Positions 14,614 through 46,910 of a DNA stretch of 64,000 nucleotides are shown here, one piece after another. Positions within the stretch are counted from its first letter, which is position 1. Every line of letters starts with the position of its first letter. The position numbers and the translations under genes were made by a program. This DNA is from Pseudomonadota bacterium (GTDB lineage Bacteria > Pseudomonadota > Alphaproteobacteria > Caulobacterales > Hyphomonadaceae), in the NCBI GenBank assembly GCA_039191105.1, contig JBCCXW010000001.1, positions 23,353 through 87,352 on the forward strand, read 5' to 3'. The notes below the pieces were generated by a model. The model was given only the letters and a program-made list of their open reading frames with translations, was not told the origin of the DNA and did not search any database.

Positions 14614-15917
14614 CTGAAACAGCGCGCGTTCTACTCTGGGGAAGCGATATAGGCGCCGTCACATGGGTGCCTGACCGAGGTGTCGGCGTATTCCAATACG
14701 CACCCGATTTTGCGCGCTCAGGGATCGAAGTCTCTCCGCTCATGATGCCGCTCACAGATACGCCCTACGAGTTCCCGTCATTATCAAGAGAAACGTTCAA
14801 AGGCTTGCCAGGCATGCTGGCCGATAGCCTACCGGACAAATTCGGTAACACACTGATTAACGCCTGGCTCTCTCGGCAGAGCCGCGATCCAAGCAGCTTC
14901 ACGCCAGTCGAGCGCCTTTGCTATACTGGCACGCGCGGCATTGGGGCGCTTGAATTCAAACCGCGCCTCGCGGAAGCGACAACTTCCGCACGTAAAATCG
15001 AAATCGAATCCCTGGTGAGACTAGCCAACCGCGTTCTAGACGACAGGATTGCGCTCGAAGGTAAATTTACGGGCGACAACGATCAGCGCGTCATTGAGGA
15101 CATTCTCCGTGTCGGGACGTCTGCGGGCGGCGCCCGCGCCAAAGCCGTGTTGGCCTGGAACGAAGCCACACAAGAATTTCGGTCTGGGCAAGCGCCGGCC
15201 ACAAAGGGTTTCGGCCAGTGGCTGATGAAGTTCGATGGCGTTACCGGAAACAAAGACAAAGAAATCGCCGACCCTCAAGGATTCGGGCGCATCGAATATG
15301 CGTACTATCTCATGGCAAAGGCTGCTGGCGTTGAAATGAATGAGTGCCGCCTTCACGAAGAAGGCGGACGCGCGCATTTCATGACGAAGCGTTTTGATCG
15401 GACGCAAGATGGCGACAAACTTCATATGCAGTCATTCGGCGCAATGATGCATTATGACTTCAATGTTGCTGGTGCTTACGCCTACGAACAAGCGCTCCAA
15501 ACTATCCGTCGATTGCGGTTGCCGAGAAGTGATACCGAGCAGCAGGTTCGGCGAGCCTATTTGAACATACTCGCGCGTAATCAGGATGATCACGTCAAGA
15601 ACATTGCATTCTTGATGAACCGCAAAGGCGAATGGCGTCTTTCACCAGCATTCGACGTTGCCTACTCATACAATCCGACCGGAGCTTGGACCAGCCAACA
15701 CCAGATGAGTTTGGCTGGAAAACGGGACGAATTCTCAATCGATGATCTCATCGAGTTTGCGGGTGTCGGAGACGTCAAAAAAGCCAGAGCGAAGAGTATT
15801 CTGTCTGAGGTCTCCAATGCTGTTGCAGACTGGGAGACATTCGCGCGTGAAGCCGACATCCCTGACAGCGATATAGACCGGATTATGAAAACGCACCGCC
15901 GCGAATTGTTCGTCTAG
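14610..15917 (+). CDS. hipA: HipA-family Ser/Thr kinase toxin
   Basis: LADSLPDKFG N-terminal domain; SAGGARAK; NQDDHVKN; LSPAFD. Confidence 0.93.
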   Translation: MTETARVLLWGSDIGAVTWVPDRGVGVFQYAPDFARSGIEVSPLMMPLTDTPYEFPSLSRETFKGLPGMLADSLPDKFGNTLINAWLSRQSRDPSSFTPVERLCYTGTRGIGALEFKPRLAEATTSARKIEIESLVRLANRVLDDRIALEGKFTGDNDQRVIEDILRVGTSAGGARAKAVLAWNEATQEFRSGQAPATKGFGQWLMKFDGVTGNKDKEIADPQGFGRIEYAYYLMAKAAGVEMNECRLHEEGGRAHFMTKRFDRTQDGDKLHMQSFGAMMHYDFNVAGAYAYEQALQTIRRLRLPRSDTEQQVRRAYLNILARNQDDHVKNIAFLMNRKGEWRLSPAFDVAYSYNPTGAWTSQHQMSLAGKRDEFSIDDLIEFAGVGDVKKARAKSILSEVSNAVADWETFAREADIPDSDIDRIMKTHRRELFV

Positions 15918-29341: not shown

Positions 29342-31933
29342 CTACGCCAAATGTACTTGATTGCCGCCAAGATCGCGGAATGCTCGCTGGCGGCACGATA
29401 GTACCAGTATCTGTAAATCTCCAGCCTGCCTGTGTAGAGCGTCGAACATTAACTCGATCCGATCATCATCTGTGAACACGAGCGCGTCATCGAGAATAAT
29501 TGGCGCAATTTGTCCGCGCTTCGCCAGCATTCTCGCGAAAGCGAGGCGAACCAGCAGAGAAATCTGTTCTTTGGTCCCGCCTGAGAGGATATCTATTGGT
29601 TCTTCTTGGCCATTCCGAATTAGGGACGATGGCAATAGTGTTTGGTCACCCCAGGACAGCTCTGCATCCGGCCAAAGCAGCTGAAGGAGCGGCTTTAGTT
29701 CATTGGCGACGGGTTCGAAATATCGGTCGCGGGCCTCACTGCGGGCGTCTTCCAAGACTGATTGCAGCTTTTGTAGAACGGCGACTTCCTTCTCGATCCC
29801 TGCAAGCTTAGCCTCCGCTAGCTCAAGTTGCTGTTTCGTTTCCGCCAGACGTTCCTCAACAGCCTCTTCCGCGGTTCGAGAGATATTCGCTTCTAACGCC
29901 GCGAGCGCTGGCTTTAGGCGGGCAATCTCTGACCTAGCGGCATCCTCGACAGATTGAACGCGTTTTAGCGTTGCTTCGGCAGCGCGAACATCCGGCGCGA
30001 GTTTCGCTTTTTCTGAATAAAGCGCTTCGGCGGCCTCAAGCGCAGTTACGGCGCGACTTAGCTCATCCTCAAGCCGCGCTTCGTCTGTATCGCCATGCCG
30101 CGCCAAAGCGGTTATCGCTCTTGCTTCACGCGCTTGTGCGGCCTCAAGCGCTGCATCAAGCTTTGACGATTCTGAGCGCGCGTCAGAGAAACGTTCTGTC
30201 TCGACCGTGCGGGCCGTGTCTGCCGTTAATCGATCTTCTTCCGCTTTAGCAAAGCGTGTTTCCGCATCTTCAAGGGCCGGGAAGTCTGTTTCAGCGGCAT
30301 CGAGTTGGGGAATAGCGGTGAGTATTTTGCGTAGATCTTCTATACCGTTTGGAGCAAGGGACTCAAAGATCGCATTAGTCTCAAGTCGGCTTTGTTCTGC
30401 AGTGTCGCGCTGAATAGCAGCATCGCGCGCATCGTCTATGGTCGTGCAGTCAAAACGTTTGAGTTTTTCAATCAGCGCGTTTTTCGCGGTCTCAACAGAA
30501 TCGTCTTTATGATCACCGACTCCAGGGTGGATACTTAATGTTCCGATTTGTTCGATGACCAGATCAGTATCCCCCCTTATCGACACTGGCATGTCGCCCG
30601 GGAGTTCCTCATCGTTCTGTTTGATCTTGCCTTGCCCACCCTCGGCATACCTAATGAGGAGATTTGCCGATTTGCTATCGTGGATCGCCTGCACAGTCTT
30701 TAGAGCCCCCGCGAGTTCTTCCAGCTCGCGCATGGATCGGGGATCAGGACCTTGTGCAGCCTCAGCGGCAGCTGTTTCCATGCTGACGCGAGCAGTCTCC
30801 GCCTTTTCGATGCGTTCCTTTAGCTCTTTGCGCCTTTCGGCACCATCAAGCGCTGCCTGGCGACGCAGAGAAACACGTAGCGAATCTTGCGCGGATTGGT
30901 ACTCTTCTAGCGCCTCATTAAACTCCCGCTGCGCTTTTGTGTGAGAGTCCTCGGCAGCTTTCAGGGACAGCTGGGCGGCCTCGGCGTTTTCTGCGACGGC
31001 CTGACGCGCTTCAACGGATGCGTCACGTTCCTTTAAGTCTCTACGCAAACCCTCGAGACGAGATTTAACATTTGTGACCGCAAGCCGCGCCGCATCAACT
31101 TTGCGTGCTTCTGATTCGACGGCGTCGGCATGACGCTGTGCGGCTTGCAGTTCTGCTGTGGCGTCCGCCACACGTTTCTTCCGCACAGCGCTCGCCTCGG
31201 GGCTCTCGAGTTCTTCAAGCTCACGACGCTTTCGCTTGCGTTCATCCAATTGGTCGCGAAGCTGAGCAACCTGACCGGCCAATTCGGTGTGTTGCAAACG
31301 GAGTGATTCAACATGTTGTTCCGCGTCTTTCCAGGGTCCGCCAGTTTTTGGTCGACCGCCAGCGGTCGCAAAATTGCTTAGCTCTTCTTTGCAGCGTGAC
31401 AGCGCCAGATCCATTCGTCTTCCACCTGTCATCGCTTCAACTTCTCCGGTGACAGATGAAAGCAGATCACGCCTGGCCTCAAGTGCGGCTTCTTTTTCTT
31501 TCTTTGATCCTTCCGATAAGGTGGTCAGGCCTTGCCGGACCCACAGCAGCCCCGATGGTCCGCCGTCTCCTCCACCCAAAAGTCGGCCAATCCATGACTC
31601 GGCTTCATCAGCTTGAGCAATCAATCGTCCGTCCTGCTCTATCTTGGCGGCAGGCTTTGACATCCATCTTTTTGTTATGACGAAAAGACCGGCGTCCGTC
31701 TCGACTTCGACGACGACTTCTGGCGCACCGCCAGCATGCGGGCGAAGCGCTTTAACGTCTTTATCGCTCGAGGTGTGAGCTTTGAAGAAGACCGCTTGTA
31801 GTGCATCGAACAGAGTCGATTTTCCGAACTCATTCGGCTCGCACAAAACGTTCAATCCGTCGCTCAATCCTTCTATACGAGCCGTATCCGTGAAACGCCG
31901 AACATTGGTGAGCGTGATAGATCGTATCCGCAT
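29342..31933 (-). CDS. SbcC/Rad50/YhaN-like ABC ATPase with long coiled coil
   Basis: EPNEFGKST Walker A; LSGGTKEQ signature; ILDDALV Walker B; no CxxC hook seen. Confidence 0.88.
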   Translation of the reverse strand: MRIRSITLTNVRRFTDTARIEGLSDGLNVLCEPNEFGKSTLFDALQAVFFKAHTSSDKDVKALRPHAGGAPEVVVEVETDAGLFVITKRWMSKPAAKIEQDGRLIAQADEAESWIGRLLGGGDGGPSGLLWVRQGLTTLSEGSKKEKEAALEARRDLLSSVTGEVEAMTGGRRMDLALSRCKEELSNFATAGGRPKTGGPWKDAEQHVESLRLQHTELAGQVAQLRDQLDERKRKRRELEELESPEASAVRKKRVADATAELQAAQRHADAVESEARKVDAARLAVTNVKSRLEGLRRDLKERDASVEARQAVAENAEAAQLSLKAAEDSHTKAQREFNEALEEYQSAQDSLRVSLRRQAALDGAERRKELKERIEKAETARVSMETAAAEAAQGPDPRSMRELEELAGALKTVQAIHDSKSANLLIRYAEGGQGKIKQNDEELPGDMPVSIRGDTDLVIEQIGTLSIHPGVGDHKDDSVETAKNALIEKLKRFDCTTIDDARDAAIQRDTAEQSRLETNAIFESLAPNGIEDLRKILTAIPQLDAAETDFPALEDAETRFAKAEEDRLTADTARTVETERFSDARSESSKLDAALEAAQAREARAITALARHGDTDEARLEDELSRAVTALEAAEALYSEKAKLAPDVRAAEATLKRVQSVEDAARSEIARLKPALAALEANISRTAEEAVEERLAETKQQLELAEAKLAGIEKEVAVLQKLQSVLEDARSEARDRYFEPVANELKPLLQLLWPDAELSWGDQTLLPSSLIRNGQEEPIDILSGGTKEQISLLVRLAFARMLAKRGQIAPIILDDALVFTDDDRIELMFDALHRQAGDLQILVLSCRQRAFRDLGGNQVHLA

Positions 31934-33060
31934 TATTCCGCCTCCTTAATATATGCGTAGAGGCGCGACAGTGCTCCGGCCGAAACAGACCGCTCATCGG
32001 TCGAGAGTGTTTCAGATTCTGCGTCATCTTTTAGTCGGTTTGCAGCCAGCCGAAGGGCACCTGCTTTGTCGATCTCGTCGATGTCAGCTTCATCATACGT
32101 CGTGCCAAGATCATCCAAGTTGAGATCCATGAACCCGAAATCCGCCCCCAGACGCTCCGACGCCTGGCGCAGCTCCGCCTGTTGCGCGAGACTGGACCAT
32201 CCTGTTGCTCTGACACGCATCAAGGCATTTCGCTGGTTATCTTCAGGAAGAATACCTTCGAATGCTTCGACTGCGTCGGCCTCCGGCAAAAGCGGGAGTT
32301 CGGTCTTGGCCCATAGGAACTCTCCGGTTTCGATTTCATCGATCTCGGGTTCCGCCCCAGGGGCTACGATTGATACGGCGAGGCAAACACCTCGCTTGCC
32401 ATGTTTGAAGCGATCTTGCTCTGGGCTACCGCTATAATGTGTTCGGGGGCTGACAGCGACGCGGCCGTGCCAATCGCCGAGCGCTAGATAATCGAGCCCT
32501 GCGCTTCGATCTCTGTCAGGCGGAATGTGACCACCACTGTCGGTGAAATCGACGACGCCCGCATGAGCGAGGCCAATTCGTATATCGCCATCGCCGGTCT
32601 GCATTGATGCGAGCTCAGCGGTTGGATCTCGTCCCGATGAACGAAAGGCGACAGGGCACGGCAATAGCTGAACACCCGCGCTTAACTCGATCGGTGCGTT
32701 ATCCGCAATAAGCTGGACGTTTTGTGGGGCGTCTCGCAAAACCTTATCCCAAAGAGGTTCTGCATCTCTGAGGTTGTCATGGTTGCCCGGTATGATCCAC
32801 CAGTAGACATCGGTGCAATCTGCCATAGCCGTCAGGGCTTGTTGAACGATCGACGCCGAAGGCGTCGCCGTGTCGAATGTATCTCCAGCGAGCAGAATGT
32901 GGTTCGCGCCTCGCTCACGCGCGACTTTCGCCAAACGCGATAACGAGGCGTGTCGTGCCTCCATTAGCCGTCCACGAATGTTTCCGTCTGGCGGTTGGGG
33001 AATATTAGAGAACCGACGTCCTAAATGTAGATCAGATGTATGGATAAATCGAAAGCTCAT
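31933..33060 (-). CDS. SbcD/Mre11/YhaO-like metallophosphoesterase nuclease
   Basis: HTSDLHLG, AGDTFD, PGNHD, LAHAG, LALGDWHG; stop shares a base with the ATPase start. Confidence 0.9.
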   Translation of the reverse strand: MSFRFIHTSDLHLGRRFSNIPQPPDGNIRGRLMEARHASLSRLAKVARERGANHILLAGDTFDTATPSASIVQQALTAMADCTDVYWWIIPGNHDNLRDAEPLWDKVLRDAPQNVQLIADNAPIELSAGVQLLPCPVAFRSSGRDPTAELASMQTGDGDIRIGLAHAGVVDFTDSGGHIPPDRDRSAGLDYLALGDWHGRVAVSPRTHYSGSPEQDRFKHGKRGVCLAVSIVAPGAEPEIDEIETGEFLWAKTELPLLPEADAVEAFEGILPEDNQRNALMRVRATGWSSLAQQAELRQASERLGADFGFMDLNLDDLGTTYDEADIDEIDKAGALRLAANRLKDDAESETLSTDERSVSAGALSRLYAYIKEAE

Positions 33061-33194
33061 CCTCGCCCCCAATAAAGTTGAATTTGAATAAAAGAAACTT
33101 CAAAACACTATAGACGGTTTTGTGCTTTTGCGGTGAACGGCGTTTGGCACAAGTCGTAAAAGGGTGCGGATGACTTGGATTGGGAAGTATGGAT

Positions 33195-33563
33195 TCAACT
33201 TTCATCTTCGACCTCTTGTGGCCGACCGCCTTTACACCAATCAACACGACCTTCTTTCACCCAGAAATGACATCCGCACGAATTTTGCTGATGCACAGAC
33301 GGCGTTATGGTCGGACGCCGCCACCAATCGAGAGATACACGCCAGTACGGGCGCCTATTTGGGTTGAGCGATAGCTCAATTCGTTGACCGCACCCTCCGG
33401 GACATGGAAAAGCGGCCCATTTGGATACGCCGTCGGGACGAACCAGAATGAACTCATTGAGCCCACCTGTTTCTCGAGCCGGCAACTGCGGATGTATTGA
33501 AGCAACAAGATCACCTTTAAGAAGACCGAGCCTTTTGAGGAATCGAAAGAACGCTGTCTTCAT
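33195..33563 (-). CDS. DUF6527-like Cys/His metal-binding protein
   Basis: WAAFPCPGGCG...PTITPSVH...CGCHFWVKEGRVDWC; ATG 33563 is 1 nt after the E1 stop. Confidence 0.75.
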   Translation of the reverse strand: MKTAFFRFLKRLGLLKGDLVASIHPQLPARETGGLNEFILVRPDGVSKWAAFPCPGGCGQRIELSLNPNRRPYWRVSLDWWRRPTITPSVHQQNSCGCHFWVKEGRVDWCKGGRPQEVEDES

Positions 33564-33564
33564 T

Positions 33565-34965
33565 TCAGAGCACCATGTTAAGTAGGGGTTCAATATCGCC
33601 GCGCCCCAGCGTCTCAGGTGTCTCACAGGCTGGACAACCATGCATTCGTTCGATGAGGGGGAAGCGATCGTCGCACGCATGGAATCGGCGGATGCGGGTT
33701 GGCCGCATACCGTCGTGACCGTGGAACCCTGTGATCGCGGCAAGAAGTTCGTTTACCGCCATGCACGCCGCTTCCGTCGTGAAAGTCACAACCGCTGGCG
33801 ATGGATCACCTTCTCCGAGAACATATGCCTCCTCTTTCAATAAGGCATAGCTATCCGGGTCTCGACGTTTCAGCGCCTCTTCACTGGCCCGCCTCGGGTC
33901 AATATGGCCTCCGCAAATAAGGCAAGGATGTCCGTCGACAAGTGTCGATGTACGAGCAAAAAGATCGAAGCTGCCGGTTTCACGCTTCTGCATTGCCAAG
34001 CCAACGTCTATCACGGGGATTGAGTAGAACCGGCTGAAACGATTGAGCACCAAGCGTCCGGCGTGATCATCCGTGCACGAAAATACAATATCGCACGCCT
34101 TTAGCGCCTCGACACTGCCTGGGTCGCCGACGAATGCGTCAATTGTGACGAGGCGCATACCAAGATTGGTTTCTGCCACAGTCCGACTGTGAACGTCAGA
34201 CTTACGGGCGCGGTTTTCCGCATCAATACGTCGAGCGCCATGAAGACGATTGAGGTTTGAGTGCTCGACTATGTCTTTTTCAAGAAGAAGCGCATCGCAA
34301 ACGCCAAGCCGCATTAGTAAAGCGAGTACCGCGCTTCCCGTGGCTCCGCCGCCGGCGATGCCGATACGCAGCGAGGCGATAAGTTCGTTCGCAGCATCAC
34401 CGAACAAGCGAGCCTGCCGGTCTAAATAGTCTATGTTGGACTGCGATTTATCCGTATTTGACAGGCTGACTCGGGCGCCTACGTGGAAAATGCGATCAAT
34501 GGACTCGTACGTGTTTGCACTAGTCCAAACCCGCGCCAATATCTGCTCATCGCCGGTAATCACAATACTGATGAATCCTCGGCATCCTTTTAGGAATGCC
34601 GTGCGCGCGAGCTCGGCTTCGTTCTTGTCATCTTGCGCAGAAAAAGCCGCAGGACCGTTTGGGTGAGTATGGACAATTCCGGGGACGAAGCCTTCGTCAC
34701 TCGCCCGACCAAAGAGGCGCATAAGACTATCTGTCCCCCAGGTGATGTGGGCGGGAGAAGCGTCGACCAGTTCATGCTCTTTGATCGGAACTACAACATG
34801 ACTCATCAAGCGTCGGCGCGGCATGTTTGACCAAGGATCACAGCTGATTTCAGCGGACCCGAAAAGCATCGTCGCCGCCGCCTCATTCCCGCCGTCCGCG
34901 GCGAGGAGCGACTTGATCGCTTCGCCGTGCACGGCTTGTAGTATGATATCAACGGTTGCCATCAT
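33565..34965 (-). CDS. JAB/MPN+ peptidase fused to ThiF/E1-like adenylase
   Basis: JAB: E27 and HTHPNGPAAFSAQD (HxH-x7-S-x2-D). E1: GGGATGS, DIVEHSNLNRL, SCTDDHAGR, CLIC...CPAC zinc site. Confidence 0.9.
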   Translation of the reverse strand: MMATVDIILQAVHGEAIKSLLAADGGNEAAATMLFGSAEISCDPWSNMPRRRLMSHVVVPIKEHELVDASPAHITWGTDSLMRLFGRASDEGFVPGIVHTHPNGPAAFSAQDDKNEAELARTAFLKGCRGFISIVITGDEQILARVWTSANTYESIDRIFHVGARVSLSNTDKSQSNIDYLDRQARLFGDAANELIASLRIGIAGGGATGSAVLALLMRLGVCDALLLEKDIVEHSNLNRLHGARRIDAENRARKSDVHSRTVAETNLGMRLVTIDAFVGDPGSVEALKACDIVFSCTDDHAGRLVLNRFSRFYSIPVIDVGLAMQKRETGSFDLFARTSTLVDGHPCLICGGHIDPRRASEEALKRRDPDSYALLKEEAYVLGEGDPSPAVVTFTTEAACMAVNELLAAITGFHGHDGMRPTRIRRFHACDDRFPLIERMHGCPACETPETLGRGDIEPLLNMVL

Positions 34966-35891
34966 GCGCCTGCCGAAGCCAGTGCGACCTGAACACGCGC
35001 GATCATCGTTTGGAGCCCATCAATCCCTGGGCGCCAAGCCTGACAATGCCGCGACCAGCGTTGCCATGACCGCCCTGCGAAATTGTGGGCGACATTAGCC
35101 GCACGCGGTTCGCGTCCGCTGACCGACAGGCGCAGCCAGGGTGAGGCATAGAACATATCTGGAGCGATATCTGGGTAGCCTGCGGGCAGAATGATCAGGA
35201 TGTCTGCCGTTTCATGATCATATTTTCCCGCGGGCAGCGGGAATGCCTTCAGAATGACCCCTGGAGTGGTTCCGTGTTCGACAATATCGAATGTCAGGTT
35301 ACGGCTCTCCAGATACTGAAGATCGGAGGACGGGATAAGCTCCCGTCCCTCCGTTGTTTGATCAATGATTGAGATGAAACGCTCTACGCCGGGCTTATCC
35401 AAGTCGATAAGATCGCAATCATCGATTTTCTGGTCGTGCCCGCCCGGCACGTCGAGCCACAACGCATAGTTGGCTGCAAGCGAGGCCAGTTTTTTCAAAA
35501 CGAAGCCTGTGATGAAGCGCCGCGGCCATTCGAGGTCACGGTCGTCAATCTTGAACAAGTATTTCCGATCAGTTCGGGCGACAAGAATGCGCTCTGCTCC
35601 GCGACCCCGAAGATCATAAGGCTCATCGAGACGAATATCTTCGAAGTCCCCGTTGGGCAGGATCGCGATCGCGACGTACTCATGAACAGGCGCTCCGCCC
35701 GTCACTTCAATCAGTTGACGACCGAGTGGAAGCGGATCGTCGAGAACGAATGGTGAGAAGCTGAGGGTCTCATTTGCGATTTGCACACGAAAGCGCCGTC
35801 TTGGCTTCAACGGCCGACCAGCGTGAACCGCTTCAGCGAGATCGTCGATATCTGGCTCATCGCCGTTTTGGGGGGAATTAAGGGAGTCCAT
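34962..35891 (-). CDS. Two multi-ubiquitin-like domains fused to a prokaryotic E2 (family E-like)
   Basis: Repeated D.LDL...G.ERF/I Ubl motifs; internal TTEG (aa 179-182); E2: LPAGYPDIAPDMFY, WQRWSRH, WRPGIDGL. Confidence 0.85.
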   Translation of the reverse strand: MDSLNSPQNGDEPDIDDLAEAVHAGRPLKPRRRFRVQIANETLSFSPFVLDDPLPLGRQLIEVTGGAPVHEYVAIAILPNGDFEDIRLDEPYDLRGRGAERILVARTDRKYLFKIDDRDLEWPRRFITGFVLKKLASLAANYALWLDVPGGHDQKIDDCDLIDLDKPGVERFISIIDQTTEGRELIPSSDLQYLESRNLTFDIVEHGTTPGVILKAFPLPAGKYDHETADILIILPAGYPDIAPDMFYASPWLRLSVSGREPRAANVAHNFAGRSWQRWSRHCQAWRPGIDGLQTMIARVQVALASAGA

Positions 35892-35907
35892 TTGATTTTC
35901 CTTCTTG

Positions 35908-35937
35908 CTGAGGGAAGCCTCATGCTTCCGCTCTCAG
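35908..35937. repeat. Bulged hairpin between helicase and Ubl-E2 genes
   Basis: CTGAG/GGAAGC-CTCAT-GCTTCC/(GCT)/CTCAG. Confidence 0.5.
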
Positions 35938-35972
35938 AAGGGCAATCGCGTCGGTTTCGAAGAACCGGTAAG

Positions 35973-38900
35973 CTAGTTGAGATTTTTTTTCGTCAGGACC
36001 CCGGTTGGTGCCTCACCGCAGATAAAAAAATGAGGACAGCGTGGACATGTGCGGTCTGGTTTGGGCGGAAAGCGACCGTCGGCAATGGCTTTTCCGGCTT
36101 CGCCGATACGCTCGCGCCGGGTCTGCAGCTTCTTGTCGGTCAGATTAACATCTGACACGTCTGCATCAGCCAAGAAGACAAACTGAACATCGGCATGGTG
36201 CCCAACAGCCAGTTGATAAGCCGCTGCATCAAGACTGTCCGTCGCTTTTGAAGTCTTTCTGCCGGTCCATATGCGCCGCACGACGGTTCTGCCATCTGAC
36301 GTCCGAACTTTTTCATGCGGCGTAACAACGATTCTTGCAACGCCGAGATCAATTTCGAGGTCCGCCGCCTCTATGGTCTCGTCACCATCTTTTAAAGCCA
36401 GCAGCACATCGAACAGGCGTGTCGCCGCAGACTTGTAAAACGACGCATTTGGGTCATCCACAGGCCCCCGACTTTGCCAAAATTTGTCGAAGTCGAGAGC
36501 GGTATCAGGCTCGGCCAGAAGTGCGTCGACCGCACCCTGCACGGCCCCGTGCATCTTCATGAAAGGTGTTTCAGTTCGTCGGCCCCCGAGTCGAAGGACA
36601 TGTGTGTACAGAAAGCGGCGGGGACACTTCTCGTAAAGAGCCAGTTGAGACGGCGTAACAGCAAGTTTTTCGTCGAACCGAAGGTCGATGTTTAGCCCGC
36701 TCAGGTCGACGTCATCAGGCGCAGCGATGGGTGGTTGCCTAGTAACGCTTGATCCGAGACGCTCGATAAAAGGGGAGGGTTTTTGATTTCGCCCTCCTTT
36801 CTGTTTGGTTGGCGCATATAGCAGAAGATCATCTTCGGCGCGTGATAACGCCACGAAGAAAAGACATTCTTGTTCTTCTTCGTGTCCTGACTTCAGCGCA
36901 TCGAGGCCGGAGCCCTGGACCCCTTCGATCATTCCATCTGGCGGAGGTAGAGCATTCATTTGATTAGCAGACTGAGGGATGGATGCGGCAGTTAACGAAG
37001 GAACGTGGACGGCTTTGAACTCGAGTCCCTTGCTTTTGTGGATCGTAAGTAGGTTTACCGCATCGAGCGCTTGCGCCGCGTCGGGTAGATCACGCAAATC
37101 GCGTTCATCTGATAGGATGACAAGACGACGGATATGATCAAGCAGGTTACTGGTTGGATACCCTCGACTATCCAAGCGGACAGTACGGAGGAAATTCTGC
37201 AACTGCCATAACGCTATAGCTGGCAATGGCGCTCCATTTAGCAATTCACCGGCATATTCAGCGGCCAACCGCGTATGGTCCAGATAAAGTGATGCAAAGG
37301 CTCGCCATGGTGTCGTACCGGGTTCGAACCCGTTATATGCGCCGCTGAGGTTCCGAAAGGTGTCACGACCCGCTTCGGAAATCTGCCCCTCGCTTGGGAG
37401 AAGGGATCTCCACTGCAAAGGCTCCAGGGATGAAGCTTCGGAGAGTACTTTGGCTGCGGCTGCGACATCGTCGATAGAAATTGGGAAAGCCGAACTCGTT
37501 GCTATTTTGGCTATTCCCATTGCTCTCGGATCAACAAGCAGCGATAGAAACGAAAGCGCTTCTTTTACTTCTGCACGGTCGAATAAAGGGCCAAGGAATA
37601 GGACGGGAATTCCGCGCGCATCGAGATTAGCGGCAATCTCAGCTAATCGATCATTGGCCTTGCATAGAACCGCTTGATCACGAAACGCGCAGCCACTTTC
37701 CCGTTTTTCGCGGATTCTTGCGGCGAGTTCGTTTAGCTCATCATTCTTTGTACCGACCTCTACATAGGAAGGCGTGACACCGGAAGCACCACGCTCGGCG
37801 ATCGCTTCGAAACCGACTTCCGCAGCTCGCATGTCGCACTTTGCGAAACCAGCGAAGGCGTCGCAAATTTCCTGGGTTGAACGATAATTCGTGGACAGGT
37901 TCTTTATGACGCCGCCGGAAAAATCCGTGTCTCCAAAACGTTCCATATTGATCGAAGAAGCTCCGCGGAAGCGATAGATGGATTGTTTCGCATCGCCTAC
38001 GACCCAGAGCCCGTCTCCGCTCGGTTTGAGCGCGGTCAACAGCCTAACGCTGGCGCGATTGACGTCCTGATACTCGTCGACAAGCACATGTTCGAAACGC
38101 GCTTGAAGCTGCTCGCGTACGATTTTGTCACTCTCTAACAGCGCAACAGCTCGCGCCACCAAGTCACCAAAGTCGAGTATGCCATGTTCAGCTTTTAGCG
38201 CTTCGTATGCGGAGTAGACTTTTGAGATCTCCGTGCATTTTTCGCCAAGCAAACGGGCATCGTCATTCCCGGCGGTGTCGAGCATCGTTTTCGCGAGCGC
38301 AGCGTATTGCTCATGATCAACCACCTCGTCTTTGGCGCGAGAAATCGCCGCCAATAGGTCCCGCAGTTTGTCAGTTGGATCGCGAAGCTCGCGGAAATGC
38401 TCTAGTTCAAGGCGAACATATTCGTTTTCGAGGAGCGCTACTGCTTCCGCAGTGTCTACAAGCCTGGGATCTTCTGGCAGTCCGGCGCGGTCGCTAAATC
38501 GCCTCAAGAGATCGAGACCAAACGAATGAAACGTGCCGAGGGTGATCTCGCCAGCGGCTTCGGGCCATATAGAGAGGGCACGCTCGCTAAGTTCGCCAGC
38601 CGCTTTGTTCGAGAAAGTCAAAACAAGAATTGAACTGGGGTCGACGCCTTGGCTTTTTAGAACGCTCAGCCTGCCGATGAGCGTTTGTGTTTTTCCAGTG
38701 CCGGGCCCCGCGCGCAGAAGAAGAGGGCTTCCATTATGGTTCGCCGCATCTGCCTGTTCAGAGTTGAGCGGCTTTGGAGGGCGCTTTTCAGTGGGCGTAA
38801 TTTTTAAAGCTGGAAGCCAAAGAGCATCGAATAGTTGAACGGCAACCATGTCGTAAGGGGCACCCAAACACTCAGCAATCTCCTTTGCGGTTCGTCCGTC

Positions 38901-39356
38901 TTCAAGGTGCCAGCTCCGCGCAAGAGTGCGTGGAAACAAGAACTCACGCGCGAAGAGGTCCATTTGAACCTCCTGTCGGGCTTTCTGGCTGTAGTCTACG
39001 ACACGCTCCGCGCCAGACGCGTCGGTCCCATCGCTCGATCGTGCAGGGTCGATGTCTGTGGACGGCGCGAACATCACATGCCCGCCAAATTCAGCATGTC
39101 CTATTTCATGCGCAACGAAGAACGCGTTGATAAAGCTATCGCTGGTGTCTTCGTGGCGGATCGTGCCGGCAGGATCGTAGAGCGCCCGCCCGCCATCCAG
39201 CATTTCATGGCCCGCTGGATAGATGCGAACTTCTATGTCTCGACGCCGCGCTTCTTTAAGGACGAACGCATACGGATCGGTTGGATCGCCGCCCGCCGCA
39301 ACAATCTCCGCGTGCAGCTCGGCGGCGCGTTGGCGGATAAGCTCAATTTGAGCCAT
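35973..39356 (-). CDS. ImmA/IrrE metallopeptidase + UvrD/PcrA helicase + degenerate PD-(D/E)XK (Fe-S) domain fusion
   Basis: AHEIGH...[14 protein letters not shown]; [55 protein letters not shown]; CPRRF...[10 protein letters not shown]. Confidence 0.92.
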
Positions 39357-39906
39357 CAGATTGCGCGAGGCGACTTAAGGCGGCCTCTTCTTCCGATGTT
39401 AAGGCGAGTCCTTCGATGAACGCAGCGTAATCCATTTGCTCCGCCCGAGCGGGCTTCCCATCAGCTTTGAACGCTAAAGCGGGACCAGTGGCATCACCGC
39501 TGGATAAATAACGAACAAAGTCATGAAGACGCACACCGATCATTCGCGAAAGGCCCGAAAGCACTGGCTCCGGCGTCGATCCAAAACGAATACGTCGGTC
39601 GCGAAAGCCTGCCAGAAAGTCTCGCGGCAAACCAATCTGTTTGGCTAATTCGCGAATGCCTTCGTTTGAAAATGCCGCTTGCAATTTTCCTACAGCAACC
39701 ATCTGGGGCTGCGCTGATTTCGTCTCGAAGCGAACCTCCTCCGCACCCGCGCGCGCTTCCGCTAAAGTGATTTCATGGAATAAATCGGTGAGCTCAATGG
39801 CGAGATCGGGATATCGGTCAATGTATGTTTTGAGGAGGGCGTGAGAGATTTCTTCCTCCATCGTGAACTCCTCAAAAACGTCTTCTGGATCAAGGTTCGG
39901 GCTCAT
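39343..39906 (-). CDS. Hypothetical protein with central XRE-like HTH (candidate anti-sigma/repressor)
   Basis: [16 protein letters not shown]-terminus; [23 protein letters not shown]-like segment; overlaps both neighbours. Confidence 0.55.
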
Positions 39907-40715
39907 TTCTTCACCTCGATTCCAAGCTCTTCGCGAATTGTTTTGAAAGCGCTTTTGCGGCGGTTTCTGACCGTCTTGTCGGTGCAGCCGAGGATTTTAG
40001 AGATCGACGGATCGCCAGGAGCTTTAGCTTGGTCTTGAATTCCGGCTTCCTGCATATCGAGTATTCTCCTTTCGTTCTCCGGGAGTTTGTCAATCGCAGC
40101 ACGGAGCTGAAACCGGTAAGTCACTGTTTCTTCCGGCGTCATATTAGATGGGCTGTAGCGATCAAGACTCTCTTCAACCTCCGACGGGACGTCGCCCGTT
40201 TCATCGTACTCTAGCGGCGTGAGCGGTTTGTTCTTGCCATAGACTTTGCGCCCCGCGCTTGCCCTGAGCTTGGCAACAGCGCGATCGAACACAACCTCAA
40301 AGATATCAAGCCGCTCTTCATAGCTTTGTCGGTCTTGAAGAATAAGCATGGTGAAGCGCTCTAGGACGTTTTCTTGAAGGTCGGCTAAGGTGCCAATTTC
40401 CCCGATGCCGCCTGCAATCGTAACGTCTTTTTGCGGACACACGCGCCTTATTCGATCTTCGAGAATTTCGAATAGCAGGCCAAATCCCACTTCTGAATTG
40501 TGCTGCCGCGTCAGTCTTAAACGATGGACCAAGAGTTCCGACGGCACGTAGTCAGGTGACTTTCGATTGTGGTTTTTCGCTCTGTCGGCCAATTCATTGA
40601 TTGGTAACGCGGCGAATTCTTGGAGCAGCTTTTCGGTCCTAGGCAGCCGTTTGTACGGCTCTCCAGTTTTTCTGACTTTTCGGAGTGGCGGTGGTTCGTA
40701 GGTCGTGTCAGCCAT
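39903..40715 (-). CDS. Divergent sigma-70/ECF-like factor
   Basis: Region-4-like IDKLPENERRIL...ISKILGCTDKTVRNRRKSAFKTIR; alternative start 40760. Confidence 0.7.
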   Translation of the reverse strand: MADTTYEPPPLRKVRKTGEPYKRLPRTEKLLQEFAALPINELADRAKNHNRKSPDYVPSELLVHRLRLTRQHNSEVGFGLLFEILEDRIRRVCPQKDVTIAGGIGEIGTLADLQENVLERFTMLILQDRQSYEERLDIFEVVFDRAVAKLRASAGRKVYGKNKPLTPLEYDETGDVPSEVEESLDRYSPSNMTPEETVTYRFQLRAAIDKLPENERRILDMQEAGIQDQAKAPGDPSISKILGCTDKTVRNRRKSAFKTIREELGIEVKK

Positions 40716-40958
40716 GTTCTGCCCATCAGTATGAACATCAAGAATTGAAGGGCGTAACACTCCGATGTTTGTATTTGGACGGCATTACACGCGGAGTGAG
40801 TTTAGTTCGATTCTCGATCGACACGCGCGATTTATTTCAGAGTACTTCGTCTTTCGATCGTTGTCTAAATAGCAGGCGCTGAAGTTGATTGCCCTCCGTC
40901 CAACCCGAAAAATACGACTACGCGGCAATCTAAAAACGGCTCCGTGAGGTCTCAATGA

Positions 40959-41187: not shown

Positions 41188-44100
41188 TTATATCACGCGC
41201 CTATGCGGAGCTTCGGCCAATGCATGTTGAGTGTCCGGATTTGGCGCGAACCAGCGGTGCAAAGCTGGCAAGACCAGAAGCGTAAGCACAGTCGATGACA
41301 CTAGCCCGCCGATAACAACAGTCGCGAGCGGTCTTTGCACTTCAGCGCCGACGCCGGTTGCAAACAATAAGGGCGCGAGTCCCAGCGCTGTAGTCATTGC
41401 CGTCATAAGCACCGGCCGTGCCCGCAATCCTGCCGCTTCAATAGCAAGTTCGTCGCGGTCGCGGCCTTCGCGCGCAAAACCATCCATAAAACTCACCAGC
41501 ACCATCCCGTTGCCGAGTGCGATGCCGAACAGGGCGATGAAACCGACGGTCGCAGGCACGGACACCGGCTGACCGGTCAGCCAGAGCGCCAGCGCGCCGC
41601 CGGTGAGCGCCAGCGGGATGTTAAGCAGGATCAGGATTGCAGATTTCAAGCGCCCGAACGCCAAAAGCAGCACAAGCAGAACGATGCCGAGTGTGATCGG
41701 AATGACGACGGCGAACCGGGCATTGGCCTGCTGCTGGAGTTCAAACTGTCCGCCCCACTCGACTCTGTATCCAGCTGGAAGATCAAGCGCAGCGTCGGTC
41801 GCTGCCTGAGCGTCGGCGACAAAGGAGCCGATGTCTCGTCCGCGGACATTCAGTTGAACGGTGATAAACCGCTCGCCATTCTCTCGCGTGATCTGCCGGG
41901 GACCAATCACCTCACGGATGTTGGCGACCGAAGATAGCGGCACCTGCGCCCCGCTTTCGCTTTTCAAAATCAGACGACCAATCGTTTCGGCGCTGTCGCG
42001 GCGGTCTTCTTCAAAACGGACAATGACCGGGAACTGGCGTACGCCCTCAAACAACGATCCGGCTTCCGCGCCGCCGACGGCCGCGCGCAGCGTATCCAGC
42101 GCGTCCTCGACCGTGAGGCCGTACCGTCCAAGTGCGGTCCGGTCGACGGAAACGACCAGTTGCGGTGCACCGGTGATTTGATCCGCCTGCACATCACTCG
42201 CGCCCGAGACGCCTTCGAGAATCTGTTGCAGGTCCTGCGAGCCTTCCAGAAGAATATCGGCGTCAGGCCCGAAGATTTTTACGGCGAGCTGGGCCTTAGT
42301 CCCGGTGAGCAGTTCGTCGACAGACATGGCAATCGGCTGACCGATATTTACCCGTATGCCGGGGAAGCTTTCGAGGTCTTGGGATATTGCGGCGCGCAGC
42401 GCATCTGGGGACAGCCCGGATCGCCACTCGGAACGCGGTTTCAGCGCGACAAAGGCTTCGATGCTGTTGACGGGATCAGCATGAGCGCCGACCTCGCCGC
42501 GCCCGATCCGGCTGACAACCGACTCGATTTCCGGAAAGCGGTCGAGCAAGCGGCGTTCCACTCGCGTCGATGTCTCCCGCCCCTCTGTCAGCGAGATCGA
42601 TGGCGCCATAGTGACCCGCAGCAGAATATCGCCTTCCTCAAGGGCGGGCGTGAACTCCGAACCGAGACGGGAACCGGCGAGACCGCCCACCAGAAGCAAG
42701 CCGATGGCGAGCGCCACGGCGGCAAGCCGCACACGGATGAAAAAGGCTGCGAGCGGCTTTACAAGGTCGGCTATCCTACCGCCGTCAGACGTCTGCTGTT
42801 TCGGAGGCTTTATCAGTCCATACGCCATCGCGGGCGCAATCAGGGCAGCGTAAATCAGTGAACCCGTCATGGCGAGCGCGGCGGCAGCCGCCAGCGGTCG
42901 GAACGTCTTGCCTTCCACGCCCTGCAGTGAAAACAGCGGCAGGAAGACGATGATGACAACAGCAACCGCGGCGATCAGCGGTGCGATCACTTCAGCGGTC
43001 GCGCGCGCGATCACATCGCGGTCAGTTTCATCGGGCCGCCGCTCGCGGAATCGCCGGTCGGCATTTTCAGCGATGACGATCGCACCGTCTACCATCATGC
43101 CAATGGCGATCGCGACGCCGCCGAGCGACATCAAATTGGCGCTAATCCCCAGCATGCCCATGGCGATGAAGGCGAAGCCGACCGAAAAAGGGATCGACAT
43201 GACGACGACGAGACTGGGCCGCCAGCCGCCGAGGAACAGGAACACAATCATCGCGACCAGCAAGGCGCCCTGCCAGAGCGCTGTCGTGACGGTGGATGCT
43301 GCACGCTGAACCAGCGTGCCCTGATCATAATAGGGCACGGCGCGGACGCCATCCGGCAATGCCGCGTTGATTTCGTCAAACCGGGCATGGGTGCGCTCAA
43401 TGACATCGGAGGTATTGGTGCCATAGAGTTTGAGCACCAGTCCCGCGACTGTCTCGCCTTCGCCATTGGCTGTGGCAAGCCCCTGACGCGCGCCGCCGCC
43501 AATGGCGACGGTTCCAAGATCACTGACGCGCACGGTCCGCCCGTCTACGGCTTTAACCGGGGTCTCAGCGAGATCGGCGATGGAACGCGCAAGCCCAACC
43601 CCGCGCACGGTATATTGCTCAGCGCCAACTTCGATGAACTGGGCGCCGGTTGTGCGGTTAGCGCTCTCCAACGCGCCGATCACATCCGCAACCTGCAGGT
43701 CATAGGCGATCAGAAGATCAGGATTGAGGCGGACCTGATACTGCTTTTCGAAACCGCCCAAGGCGAGAACCTCAGTGACGCCCTCGACCGATTGCAGCGG
43801 ATACTTGATCATCCAGTCAGCGATCTCGCGCAATTCCGTGAGATCATAATCGCCGGTCTCATCGACCAGGCGGAAATACATGATGATGCCGAGCCCGGTT
43901 GAAATCGGTCCCATTTTCGGGGCGCCGAAGCCATCCGGAATGCCTTCGGCCGCTTCCGGCAGGCGCTCGCCGACAACCTGGCGAGCGAAATAGACGTCCG
44001 TGCCGTCCTTAAAATAGACGTTCACAATGGATAGGCCGAAATTGGAGACCGAACGAACCTCTTCGACATTCGGCAGGCCGGACATGGCGGTCTCGACCGG

Positions 44101-44298
44101 GAAAGTGACATAACGCTCAACCTCTTCGGGCGAGAGACCTTCGGTTTCGGTGAAGACCTGCACCAGCGAGGGCGAGGGATCCGGAAAGGCGTCGACTGGC
44201 AGCGCGCGAAACGCGAACAGTCCGCCAATCGCCAGGGCGAGCGCCGCGATCGCGGCCAGCAGTCGGCCGCCAGCAAGACGGTACATGATATTTTGCAT
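41188..44298 (-). CDS. czcA: CusA/CzcA heavy-metal RND efflux transporter
   Basis: LPVDAFPD; AIGMMVDGAI; GFIALFGIALGNGMV; RARPVLMTAMTT. Confidence 0.95.
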   Translation of the reverse strand: MQNIMYRLAGGRLLAAIAALALAIGGLFAFRALPVDAFPDPSPSLVQVFTETEGLSPEEVERYVTFPVETAMSGLPNVEEVRSVSNFGLSIVNVYFKDGTDVYFARQVVGERLPEAAEGIPDGFGAPKMGPISTGLGIIMYFRLVDETGDYDLTELREIADWMIKYPLQSVEGVTEVLALGGFEKQYQVRLNPDLLIAYDLQVADVIGALESANRTTGAQFIEVGAEQYTVRGVGLARSIADLAETPVKAVDGRTVRVSDLGTVAIGGGARQGLATANGEGETVAGLVLKLYGTNTSDVIERTHARFDEINAALPDGVRAVPYYDQGTLVQRAASTVTTALWQGALLVAMIVFLFLGGWRPSLVVVMSIPFSVGFAFIAMGMLGISANLMSLGGVAIAIGMMVDGAIVIAENADRRFRERRPDETDRDVIARATAEVIAPLIAAVAVVIIVFLPLFSLQGVEGKTFRPLAAAAALAMTGSLIYAALIAPAMAYGLIKPPKQQTSDGGRIADLVKPLAAFFIRVRLAAVALAIGLLLVGGLAGSRLGSEFTPALEEGDILLRVTMAPSISLTEGRETSTRVERRLLDRFPEIESVVSRIGRGEVGAHADPVNSIEAFVALKPRSEWRSGLSPDALRAAISQDLESFPGIRVNIGQPIAMSVDELLTGTKAQLAVKIFGPDADILLEGSQDLQQILEGVSGASDVQADQITGAPQLVVSVDRTALGRYGLTVEDALDTLRAAVGGAEAGSLFEGVRQFPVIVRFEEDRRDSAETIGRLILKSESGAQVPLSSVANIREVIGPRQITRENGERFITVQLNVRGRDIGSFVADAQAATDAALDLPAGYRVEWGGQFELQQQANARFAVVIPITLGIVLLVLLLAFGRLKSAILILLNIPLALTGGALALWLTGQPVSVPATVGFIALFGIALGNGMVLVSFMDGFAREGRDRDELAIEAAGLRARPVLMTAMTTALGLAPLLFATGVGAEVQRPLATVVIGGLVSSTVLTLLVLPALHRWFAPNPDTQHALAEAPHRRVI

Positions 44299-44310
44299 AT
44301 GTATCGCCTC

Positions 44311-45627
44311 CTAGTGAACGTGGCCGTCGCCGAAGGCGTCTTTTTCGAGCTGGGCTTTCAGCGTAAAGGCGCCTTCGGTCACATACCGCTCGCCCTCGGT
44401 GAGCCCGGACCGGATGATTGTCTGGTCGCCGATCTGCCGTCCTGGCGTGACGGGCCTCGGCTCAAAGCCGTCATCGGTCGGGACGAAGACGACGGTGCGG
44501 CCTTCGACCTGAACGATGGCGCTGGAGGGCGCCATGACGGCCGGTTCGCCGTTTCCGGTTTCGATCTGTGCAGTGACGAACTGACCGGGCCTCAGCCGAC
44601 GCTCGGCATTGTCGACAATCATGCGTGCAGTGACGGTTCTTGACGTCTCGTCGAAGGATGGCAGGACCAGCGCGATCTCGCCAGATGCGAGCGCGCTGCC
44701 TGTGTTTGAGACCAGCCGAACCGGAACGCCGGGTTGCACAGCAGCGATATCCTGCTTGTAGACCGCAATATCAGCCCAGAGCACGCTGTCATCGACAATA
44801 GTGAACAAAGCCGGCGCGCCGGGGTCATCAGCTGACACAGTTGCGACGAGCATCGCTGTGCGCTGTGCAATAGTACCGCCAATCGGCGCGCGCAGGCGCG
44901 TTGTCGCGAGCGAGCCGTCCGGAGCGTCTGCGAGCGCGGCGAGTTCCGCATCACTGACGCCGACAGCGTGCAACTTGTTTTCAACGCCGCCACGCTGCGC
45001 GCGCGCCGCCGCCAGCGCGGCCCGCGCCGTTTGCAGATCCGCTTCGGACGTGATCCGGTCGGCGAAGAGTGTTTCTTCGCGCTCCAGCGCCTGACGCGCG
45101 AGTGTCTCCGCCGTTGCAGCCGACAGATATTCAGCTTTCAAATCGGCGAGTTCACGGCTGGCGAGGACGGCCAGCGTGTCGCCGCGTGAGACGGTATCGC
45201 CTTCGCCCTTCGTCAGCCTTTCGATCCGTCCGCTAACCAGCGGCGAAACGGCGGCGACACGATCAGCGTCAAAGCGAAGTTCCGCTGGCAGGCTGAGCGA
45301 GCCGTTGGCTGTGTTCATCTCTGCTGCGGCAACGATAATGCCGGCTTCGCGCGCCGCTTCGGGGCTCATTTCGACATGATCTGAATGTTCATCATCTCCA
45401 TGGTCATGACCTGCGTGCTCTTCCCGATCGCTGTGATCATCGTGGTCATGGCCATCATGTCCATCATGTCCATTATGATCGTCTTCATCGACGTGATCGT
45501 CATGGGCATGCCCGTCATGATCATTGTGATCATGCTCGGACGCAGACGGCGATGGTGCGTTGTTTCCGCAGGCCGGAAGGGACAAGCCTGCAAGAGTTAG
45601 GAACATCAGGGTAAAGATCAGTCTCAT
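44311..45627 (-). CDS. czcB: CzcB-like membrane fusion protein with His/Asp-rich N-terminus
   Basis: HDHNDHDGHAHDDH...; LRAPIGGTI; LRPGQFV; KDAFGDGHVH. Confidence 0.93.
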   Translation of the reverse strand: MRLIFTLMFLTLAGLSLPACGNNAPSPSASEHDHNDHDGHAHDDHVDEDDHNGHDGHDGHDHDDHSDREEHAGHDHGDDEHSDHVEMSPEAAREAGIIVAAAEMNTANGSLSLPAELRFDADRVAAVSPLVSGRIERLTKGEGDTVSRGDTLAVLASRELADLKAEYLSAATAETLARQALEREETLFADRITSEADLQTARAALAAARAQRGGVENKLHAVGVSDAELAALADAPDGSLATTRLRAPIGGTIAQRTAMLVATVSADDPGAPALFTIVDDSVLWADIAVYKQDIAAVQPGVPVRLVSNTGSALASGEIALVLPSFDETSRTVTARMIVDNAERRLRPGQFVTAQIETGNGEPAVMAPSSAIVQVEGRTVVFVPTDDGFEPRPVTPGRQIGDQTIIRSGLTEGERYVTEGAFTLKAQLEKDAFGDGHVH

Positions 45628-46910
45628 TGGAGACCTCCATCAAAAGGGACGGCGCCGATCAGGGCGCGAAGGCGCAAATCTTCGGCAAAGACCGCGCGCT
45701 CGGCTTCGATGACGGCGATTTGAGTCTCCAGCAACGCCGCGCGGGCGTTCAAAGTTGTGGTGAGGTCGAACCGGCCGACCTGATAGCCGCGCTCGGCGGC
45801 CGCAAAGGCGCTTTCCGCTTCCGGCAGGGCGTCTTCGGTAAGAATATCGAGGCGGGCCTGAGCGGCGCGGCGCGAGGCCACGGCGCTGCGCTGCTCCGAA
45901 AGCAGACGCTGCTCGATGACGCGGCGGTCGAGCGATGCCGCATCGGTGCGAAACGCGCTTGCGCGAGCAGCGTCACGACCGCGATCAAAAAGCGGCAGCG
46001 GCACACTGACCCCGGCGATGAACGCTTCGTCGCCGGTTTCTTCAAAACGCCGAAACCCAGCCGAAATCGTCACGTCTGGCAAGACTGCGCTGCGGGCGAG
46101 CTTTGTCTCGGCCTCTCGCGCGCGCAGCGCTGCATCGGCGGCGTCGAGCCGCGGATTGTCGGAGACGCCTTCCCTGGCTTCGACTGAACGGAAGGCGCCG
46201 CCAGGAATGGGCGGCCCGAATCGTGGATCAGCGTCGCCCCACAAAGAAGCGAGCGCATATCGCCGCGCATCAATCTCGGCTTCTGCGCCAGCCGCGCTTG
46301 CGCGCAGGGCTGCCGCATCCGCGCGGGCGCGCGACAGTTCAGGCGGCGCGGCCGCCCCGGCATCAACACGGCGTTCGACGGTCGCCGCGAGCCGGCCCGA
46401 AATTTCTGAACTCTCTGCAGCAAGGTCACGCAACGCCTGCGCCGCGAGAAGATCGGCATAAAGGAGCGCGGCCTGAAGCTCGACTTCCCTTAGGATGACC
46501 GCGCATTCGGCGCTCGCCAGCGCCTGACGCGCGCGCGCCGCTCGTTCGCTGAGACCACGCTTGCCCCCCAAGCGGAAGGTTTGCTCGATTGCTATCGTCG
46601 TCTCGGTCTGATCGAAACCCGACAAGGCGCCGCTGCCAGAGAAGTTCTCCAGTTCTATAAGGATACTGGGATTGAGCGGACGCGCAGCTTGATCGGCCTC
46701 CGCGTCAAGCGCGTTTGCTTCAAGGCCCGCCGCACGCACTTCGGGGCTGGCGCGGCGAATTTCGTTCAGCACAGCGCCAAGTGTCAGCGGCGCTCCGCTT
46801 TTGATATCGCTGGCATCGCCTTCGCGTCCGTCGCATGGCGCGGCTTTTGCGCCTGTCGCGGCGGCGACCAGCGCAAGGGCGACGGCAGCGCCCCGAAAAA
46901 TAGATGACAT
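45624..46910 (-). CDS. czcC: CzcC/TolC outer-membrane factor
   Basis: Signal peptide; LNPSI; VSVPLPLFDRG; AERGYQVG. Confidence 0.92.
   Translation of the reverse strand: MSSIFRGAAVALALVAAATGAKAAPCDGREGDASDIKSGAPLTLGAVLNEIRRASPEVRAAGLEANALDAEADQAARPLNPSILIELENFSGSGALSGFDQTETTIAIEQTFRLGGKRGLSERAARARQALASAECAVILREVELQAALLYADLLAAQALRDLAAESSEISGRLAATVERRVDAGAAAPPELSRARADAAALRASAAGAEAEIDARRYALASLWGDADPRFGPPIPGGAFRSVEAREGVSDNPRLDAADAALRAREAETKLARSAVLPDVTISAGFRRFEETGDEAFIAGVSVPLPLFDRGRDAARASAFRTDAASLDRRVIEQRLLSEQRSAVASRRAAQARLDILTEDALPEAESAFAAAERGYQVGRFDLTTTLNARAALLETQIAVIEAERAVFAEDLRLRALIGAVPFDGGLQ

Follow-up and report, generated by a model that had tools for sequence, protein, structure and literature searches.

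A predicted Type I Bub operon on an alphaproteobacterial conjugative element, with tyrosine and serine at the E1 and E2 positions expected to hold cysteine

Type I operons of the bacterial ubiquitination-like (Bub) family, formerly 6E.1/DUF6527, are defined by the gene set BubAB, BubCD, and BubE (Ye, Gong, Chambers, Corbett, bioRxiv 10.1101/2024.11.21.623953). In the reference system, from Citrobacter sp. RHBSTW-00271 (PDB 9EA4, 9EA5, 9EA8, 9EAE, 9EAV), BubCD cleaves BubAB after G229, the substitutions Y370F in the E1 and S333A/H335A in the E2 abolish BubA conjugation both in vitro and in E. coli cells, and Y370 neighbours S333/H335 in the crystal structure, S333 being structurally equivalent to the catalytic cysteine of other E2s (bioRxiv 10.1101/2024.11.21.623953). 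Homologues from Citrobacter and E. coli attach the ubiquitin-like protein (Ubl) to proteins in an ATP-dependent manner (same preprint). Here, we analysed a 64,000-nucleotide stretch (hereafter "the window") of contig JBCCXW010000001.1 from a bacterium of the family Hyphomonadaceae, in which positions 33195-35891 on the minus strand are best read, from sequence, as a complete and intact Type I Bub operon. A preliminary description of this DNA had noted that its E1 and E2 appear to lack canonical catalytic cysteines; this absence is real, yet accounted for by the published Bub family. Taken as a whole, we consider it highly probable that the locus is a Type I Bub operon working through a tyrosine and serine oxyester route, in which C283, a cysteine near the E2 active site, would not act as a nucleophile.

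The operon is made up of three genes:

34962..35891, minus strand: bubAB, encoding a Ubl-Ubl-E2 pre-protein of 309 amino acids (aa), assigned from Pfam and PDB sequence matches.
33565..34965, minus strand: bubCD, encoding a JAB peptidase-E1 fusion of 466 aa, assigned from Pfam matches and a PDB sequence match.
33195..33563, minus strand: bubE, encoding a DUF6527 serine protease of 122 aa, assigned from Pfam PF20137 (E 5.5e-24).

The bubAB product matches Multi_ubiq (PF14452) in two stretches (E 4e-28) and Prok-E2_E (PF14462, E 3e-44), and the bubCD product matches Prok-JAB (residues 20-139) and ThiF (residues 182-418). With ATGATG at the bubAB/bubCD junction and the bubE start only 1 nt past the bubCD stop, the three genes are translationally coupled. 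Public gene calls begin the E1 at its second methionine (465 aa), which shifts the E1 residue numbers used here by -1. BubE combines its DUF6527 assignment with a Ser/His dyad (S89, H99) and a zinc-type cluster of cysteines (54, 58, 96, and 98), and the spacing S89-x6-C96-x2-H99 is identical to that of Citrobacter S92/C99/H102.

The preliminary description had read the E2 active-site region as WQRWSRHC, containing S280 and C283, and this reading was confirmed at residues 276-283 of the open reading frame at 34962-35891 (minus strand), which includes the following features:

35346..35891, minus strand: BubA part, residues 1-182, ending in QTTEG, with G182 as the predicted site of JAB cleavage and adenylation.
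34962..35345, minus strand: BubB E2 domain, residues 183-309 plus the stop codon.
35052..35054, minus strand: E2 S280, predicted catalytic serine, equivalent to Citrobacter BubB S333 (QRWSRH is identical in both).
35046..35048, minus strand: E2 H282, predicted partner of the serine, equivalent to BubB H335 by alignment and conservation.
35157..35159, minus strand: E2 D245 in PDMFY, equivalent to BubB D299 (PDMFY pairs with LDMFY).
35043..35045, minus strand: E2 C283, a cysteine that conservation marks as lineage-specific and not as a conserved active-site residue.

Sequence and structure comparisons both tie this protein to Bub systems. Its PDB sequence matches comprise the multi-ubiquitin entries 8u38 and 9d5b (E 1e-31) and Citrobacter BubB (9eae_C, E 3e-10), and an AlphaFold2 model of residues 183-309 (mean pLDDT 96.7) has the same BubB chain as its best PDB fold match (TM 0.88, root-mean-square deviation 1.2 Å), followed by the eukaryotic E2s UBE2N, Cdc34, and UBE2K at a TM of about 0.45-0.5. 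Conservation was examined across 120 close BubAB homologues, across 150 diverged representatives (the best 150 of the 623 matches obtained when 1.8 billion representatives, each of a 50%-identity cluster, were searched), and in alignment A3, which comprises 87 diverged E2 domains with a mean column identity of 32%. At the end of BubA, T179, E181, and G182 are invariant in 120/120 homologues, and the junction glycine G182 corresponds to G229 of Citrobacter BubAB. Position 280 is a serine in all 120 close homologues, in 142 of the 143 non-gap diverged representatives, and in 87/87 sequences of alignment A3, position 282 is a histidine in 119/120, 143/143, and 87/87, respectively, and position 245 is an aspartate in 120/120 close homologues and 146/149 diverged representatives. 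The only invariant columns of alignment A3 are S280, H282, and W286. Many of the Prok-E2_E proteins among diverged representatives P0248-P0395 are stand-alone proteins of ~120-140 aa that have no fused Ubl and keep the S-x-H motif, which indicates that large unfused branches exist in this family.

The E1 features given in the preliminary description likewise held on the open reading frame at 33565-34965 (minus strand), where CLIC occupies residues 348-351, GGHIDPRR 352-359, and EEAYVLGEGDPSP 378-390. As that description had observed, the crossover segment contains Y381 but no cysteine (none in residues ~360-387). The features of this protein are:

33823..33825, minus strand: E1 Y381, predicted catalytic tyrosine, equivalent to Citrobacter BubCD Y370 (tyrosine aligned to tyrosine with high posterior; invariant in 119/119 homologues).
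33805..33888, minus strand: E1 crossover loop, approximately residues 360-387, cysteine-free, aligned to Citrobacter BubCD 347-377.
34630..34884, minus strand: JAMM residues E28, H99, H101, S109, and D112, from the alignment to Citrobacter E28, H91, H93, and D104.
34246..34248, minus strand: E1 R240, adenylation-site arginine, equivalent to Citrobacter R227 (NLNR pairs with NLNR; invariant in 119/119).
33625..33924, minus strand: Cys4 zinc-type site, formed by C348 and C351 (CLIC) with C444 and C447 (CPAC).

The best PDB sequence match of the E1 is Citrobacter BubCD (9ea4, E 6e-23, residues 9-425). In the HMMER alignment, Y381 stands opposite the tyrosine of Citrobacter ERGYITG, residue 372 of the chain, which corresponds to Y370 once a 2-residue tag offset is considered (458 aa in the chain, protein numbering to 456), and E28/H99/H101/D112 pair with E28/H91/H93/D104 of the Citrobacter JAMM site. 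Among 119 E1 homologues (49-74% identity), H99, H101, and D112 are invariant and E28 is found in 116, the remaining 3 being gaps. E379, Y381, and G384 are the sole invariant residues of the loop, and stray cysteines in residues 352-395 were detected in 4/119 homologues, at non-equivalent positions. A 28-residue loop devoid of cysteine is unremarkable by itself, and the significance of this one lies in its homology and conservation. Three further E1 relatives from related genomes (52, 39, and 28% identity) also retain Y381 together with the full set of peptidase and adenylation residues, and the most distant of these (28%, L008) has lost the first CxxC pair. While C348, C351, and C444 never vary among the homologues and C447 is kept in 118/119, the first cysteine pair is missing from both Citrobacter BubCD and L008, so that the zinc site is an optional, structural element of the Bub E1 family, dispensable for catalysis.

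Other residues of the E1 were considered as nucleophiles and rejected. C348, C351, C444, and C447 belong to the Cys4 zinc-type site, with its first pair absent from the two relatives just named; C297, itself conserved, has a matching cysteine in Citrobacter BubCD, yet Y370F alone kills activity there; C291 is an alanine in Citrobacter; and C401 and C431 vary among homologues. In and around the loop, Y373 gives way to phenylalanine in 23 homologues, S361 and S372 are minority choices at sites dominated by arginine and alanine, S389 is an alanine in 23 homologues, and T396 aligns with an asparagine in Citrobacter. The C-T-D-D motif of the adenylation strand, which holds C297, is common to ThiF, MoeB, and UBA5.

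A canonical thioester cascade has a cysteine in the E1 loop or in a dedicated Cys domain and another at the E2 site; here, the loop is cysteine-free and the E2 position is a serine. The preliminary description had instead proposed Y381 and S280 as nucleophiles, subject to their conservation, and had stated that Bub pathways were reported to use oxyesters. That statement agrees with the published work, and the proposal is supported by the homology of both residues to the experimentally tested Y370 and S333 as well as by their invariance (Y381 in 119/119 E1 homologues, S280 in 120/120 E2 homologues). By analogy with Citrobacter, the catalytic need for the tyrosine and the Ser/His pair would extend to the homologous, equivalent, and conserved residues observed at this locus. 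In the corresponding pathway, the JAB domain of BubCD would cut BubAB after G182 (QTTEG), yielding BubA, a Ubl of two beta-grasp domains, and free BubB E2. The ThiF-type domain of BubCD would adenylate the C-terminal glycine of the Ubl, Y381 on the cysteine-free crossover loop would accept it as a tyrosyl oxyester, and the Ubl would then be transferred to S280 of BubB, with H282 and D245 activating this serine, before reaching a target lysine. Conjugates would ultimately be stripped by BubE through Ser89 and His99.

The covalent tyrosine and serine oxyester intermediates are deduced, both here and in the preprint, from mutants and structures, and several points weigh against this pathway. No Ubl~Tyr or Ubl~Ser ester was trapped or characterised in the preprint, which makes no mention of hydroxylamine, and an ATP-dependent BubA-BubCD band, judged off-pathway, persisted with Y370F (bioRxiv 10.1101/2024.11.21.623953). 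Identity to the Citrobacter proteins is low, at 28% over the aligned E2 fold with a similarly divergent E1 alignment. Because the intermediates were untrapped and the BubA-BubCD band was independent of Y370, a tyrosine that is essential without being a nucleophile keeps some probability.

Such a tyrosine would be expected if the E1 only adenylates, as ThiF or MoeB do, with the E2 serine or the target itself attacking the acyl-adenylate and Y381 contributing to positioning, loop gating, or E2 docking. The untrapped Ubl~Tyr and the Y370-independent adduct would both be consistent with this scheme, as would the orientation of Y370 in the crystal, where it faces away from the adenylation site and is set by the AMP phosphate only in an AlphaFold model, and the Y-to-F phenotype also fits a hydrogen-bonding or structural role. 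We nevertheless consider this scheme unlikely, since the tyrosine is the sole crossover-loop residue invariant across the family, occupies the place of the catalytic cysteine in other E1s, and is positioned against E2 residues S333/H335 in the complex structure, and since removing just its hydroxyl group abolishes product formation. A second possibility is that the E1 and E2 are catalytically dead look-alikes, or parts of a sulfur-carrier (ThiS/MoaD-type) adenylation system rather than of a protein conjugation pathway. Earlier bioinformatic work, as quoted, did predict cysteine-less 6E E2-like proteins to be inactive, and the E1 domain is ThiF/MoeB-like with a Cys4 zinc site. This possibility is extremely improbable, however, as the Citrobacter and E. 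coli homologues are active in ATP-dependent conjugation, the catalytic residues of the peptidase, adenylation site, E2, and BubE are all intact and invariant, the operon includes an E2 and two peptidases for which a sulfur carrier would have no need, and the locus is part of a mobile element rather than of a cofactor-synthesis gene neighbourhood.

With the tyrosine and serine oxyester route as the preferred reading, the remaining question is that of C283, which the preliminary description had put forward as an alternative nucleophile giving a mixed or reverted chemistry. This suggestion did not hold up: C283 represents a subclade-specific substitution at a variable position, and S280, H282, and D245 are fully kept in the subclade. 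C283 is the sole cysteine of the E2 domain (residues 183-309), and is located three residues past S280, next to H282, in the loop following the last beta strand. It is found in the 11 nearest relatives (69-76% identity) and in one distant sequence, and its retention in all 11 of these relatives, while position 284 varies freely, could be taken as a sign that it serves as the real or an additional E2 nucleophile in this subclade, either in a mixed relay from a tyrosyl ester to a cysteine thioester or as a reversion. The wider distribution argues otherwise. Position 283 is mostly an asparagine (86) or a serine (21) in the 120 close homologues, with a cysteine in just 12, and 62/150 diverged representatives have an E2 domain without any cysteine. 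A cysteine anywhere within E2 residues 274-290 was detected in 2/150 diverged representatives. In alignment A3, the position is mostly L/F/I/Y/W, and this prevalence across diverged E2 domains suggests that it is a packing site. Of the 141 positions fixed in this small clade, 10 carry clade-diagnostic substitutions, C283 among them, so that its retention is explained by shared ancestry. Finally, neither S280, H282, nor D245 is relaxed in the C283 clade, the partner E1 crossover loops include no matching cysteine, and Citrobacter BubB has no cysteine aligned at this position. A nucleophilic C283 is thus highly improbable, and the residue is a lineage-specific neighbour of the active site. It is also very unlikely, though conceivable, that C283 gained another function in this alphaproteobacterial subclade, as a redox-sensitive switch or as an auxiliary thiol to which S280 or the E1 tyrosyl ester would pass the Ubl; if true, such a thiol acceptor would be a natural example of an E2 midway between oxyester and thioester chemistry.

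Other cysteines characterise a sister clade. About two thirds of the close BubAB homologues have cysteines at both position 242, next to D245 in a YPDC-x-PDMFY loop (81/120), and position 265, in PKAC (69/120), which could constitute a paired or disulfide feature of that clade. The window protein and its subclade have neither (I242, A265), and harbour C283 instead. As the sister clade has cysteines where the window protein has isoleucine and alanine, no E2 cysteine is a family feature.

A Trb-type conjugation module (TraG-like coupling protein, TrbB-like ATPase, TrbE, TrbL, TrbI) has the Bub operon at its end. The operon is cargo of a conjugative element and an unexceptional representative of a cysteine-free family that is already known and published. 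Clear BubCD relatives were identified in 3 of the 24 other genomes searched within the host genus (G018, G019, G020), a sparse distribution that fits mobile cargo. The same element includes a HipA-like kinase toxin gene (Couple_hipA and HipA_C domains; window 14586-15917, plus strand) between the coupling-protein and Trb genes. Upstream of the Bub genes, and in the same orientation, are genes for a sigma-region-4-like protein, a 187-aa protein, and a 1127-aa Peptidase_M78-UvrD-PD-(D/E)XK fusion (window 35973-40760, minus strand). A similar trio, i.e. a sigma-like protein, a protein of ~185 aa without Pfam match, and a fusion of ~1130 aa, adjoins the Bub genes in 3/3 relatives: a metagenome contig (L001, 5184-9917), Algimonas (L002, 5198-9933), and Phaeobacter inhibens (L003, 5187-9931). 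In the portion of Table S1 available to us, the P. inhibens row carries no identifiers, and neighbouring rows show two, possibly in columns for regulators (bioRxiv 10.1101/2024.11.21.623953). Just beyond the sigma-like gene is an RND efflux set composed of an AcrB/CzcA-like pump, an HlyD/CusB-like adaptor, and an outer-membrane factor (window 41188-46910, minus strand), with a G+C content of 0.60-0.62 compared to about 0.54.

In both the window (29342-33072, minus strand) and L001 (12824-16572), the genes downstream of bubE encode an SbcD-like metallophosphoesterase and an SbcC/Rad50-like ATPase; in L001, an integrase comes after this pair. This pair was found in these two loci only and does not follow bubE in Algimonas or Phaeobacter, so that it looks like an add-on to a subset of Bub loci. 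The 81-bp gap separating the helicase fusion gene from bubAB (window 35892-35972, minus strand) contains nested imperfect inverted repeats, GGAAGC...GCTTCC within CCTTCTGAG...CTCAG-AAGG, which might act as an operator or fold into an RNA hairpin. The gap showed neither a sigma-70-like promoter nor a terminator, and a promoter and terminator scan of window positions 32900-36200 yielded none above the shuffled background. PADLOC (2023) did not recognise the Bub genes, with no model for the E2 and weak E1-E2 (Cap2) matches for the E1.

With cysteine-free E1 and E2 chemistry already a published hallmark of Bub systems, the operon adds little beyond its annotation. Its value is modest: this well-populated alphaproteobacterial clade, borne on an integrative conjugative element, offers a second and diverged system (28% E2-fold identity) in which to trap the inferred tyrosine and serine oxyesters, and the natural cysteine adjoining the catalytic histidine provides a ready control for assays of thioester versus oxyester linkage. 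In E. coli, Bub operons were not found to provide phage protection (bioRxiv 10.1101/2024.11.21.623953).

Among described systems, the closest is the Type I Bub operon of Citrobacter sp. RHBSTW-00271, which shares with the window the three genes, their order, and the Ubl-E2 and JAB-E1 fusions, alongside the junction glycine, the JAMM and adenylation residues, the tyrosine, the Ser/His/Asp set of the E2 with its QRWSRH motif and overall fold (TM 0.88), and the Ser/His pair of BubE. The two differ in several respects. BubA of the window has two beta-grasp domains and that of Citrobacter three, the window E1 has retained both halves of a CxxC...CxxC zinc-type site, of which Citrobacter lacks the first pair, and the window E2 has a cysteine right after S-x-H. 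The window operon is also located on a Trb-type conjugative element and not on a tRNA-inserted island, and is flanked by the sigma-like protein, 187-aa protein, and M78-UvrD-nuclease fusion upstream and by the SbcCD-like pair downstream. Type II Bub, as in E. coli ZDHYS365 (BubA, the E2-E1 fusion BubBD, and BubE), has the same crossover-loop tyrosine (Y342), E2 serine (S106), DUF6527 protease, and multi-ubiquitin Ubl, the last also reflected in a PDB match of bubAB to the ZDHYS365 multi-ubiquitin protein 9cd2. However, Type II systems have a fused E2-E1, lack a JAB domain, and pair the serine with lysine and histidine, whereas both the fusions and the His/Asp pair found in the window follow Type I.

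More distant are the bacterial ISG15-like (Bil) systems and the Cap2/Cap3 proteins of Type II cyclic-oligonucleotide-based anti-phage signalling systems (CBASS), which similarly encode bacterial Ubl, E1, E2, and JAB machinery in defence contexts, and the window E1 domain gives weak PDB matches to Cap2. These systems rely on catalytic cysteines and thioesters, with a Bil E1 composed of tandem adenylation domains and a Cys domain, while the window proteins have a cysteine at neither position. The homodimeric E1-like adenylyltransferases ThiF, MoeB, and UBA5 share the Rossmann-type domain, glycine-rich loop, NLNR arginine, C-T-D-D motif, and Cys4 zinc site of the window E1, which differs in carrying an N-terminal JAB domain and in working with an E2, and has a tyrosine on the crossover loop where UBA5 has a cysteine (C250). 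Finally, a P. inhibens protein of the same clade is 61% identical to the window E2, and because a Type I Bub operon of P. inhibens is listed in the portion of Table S1 available to us (bioRxiv 10.1101/2024.11.21.623953), the clade to which the window operon belongs is already catalogued.

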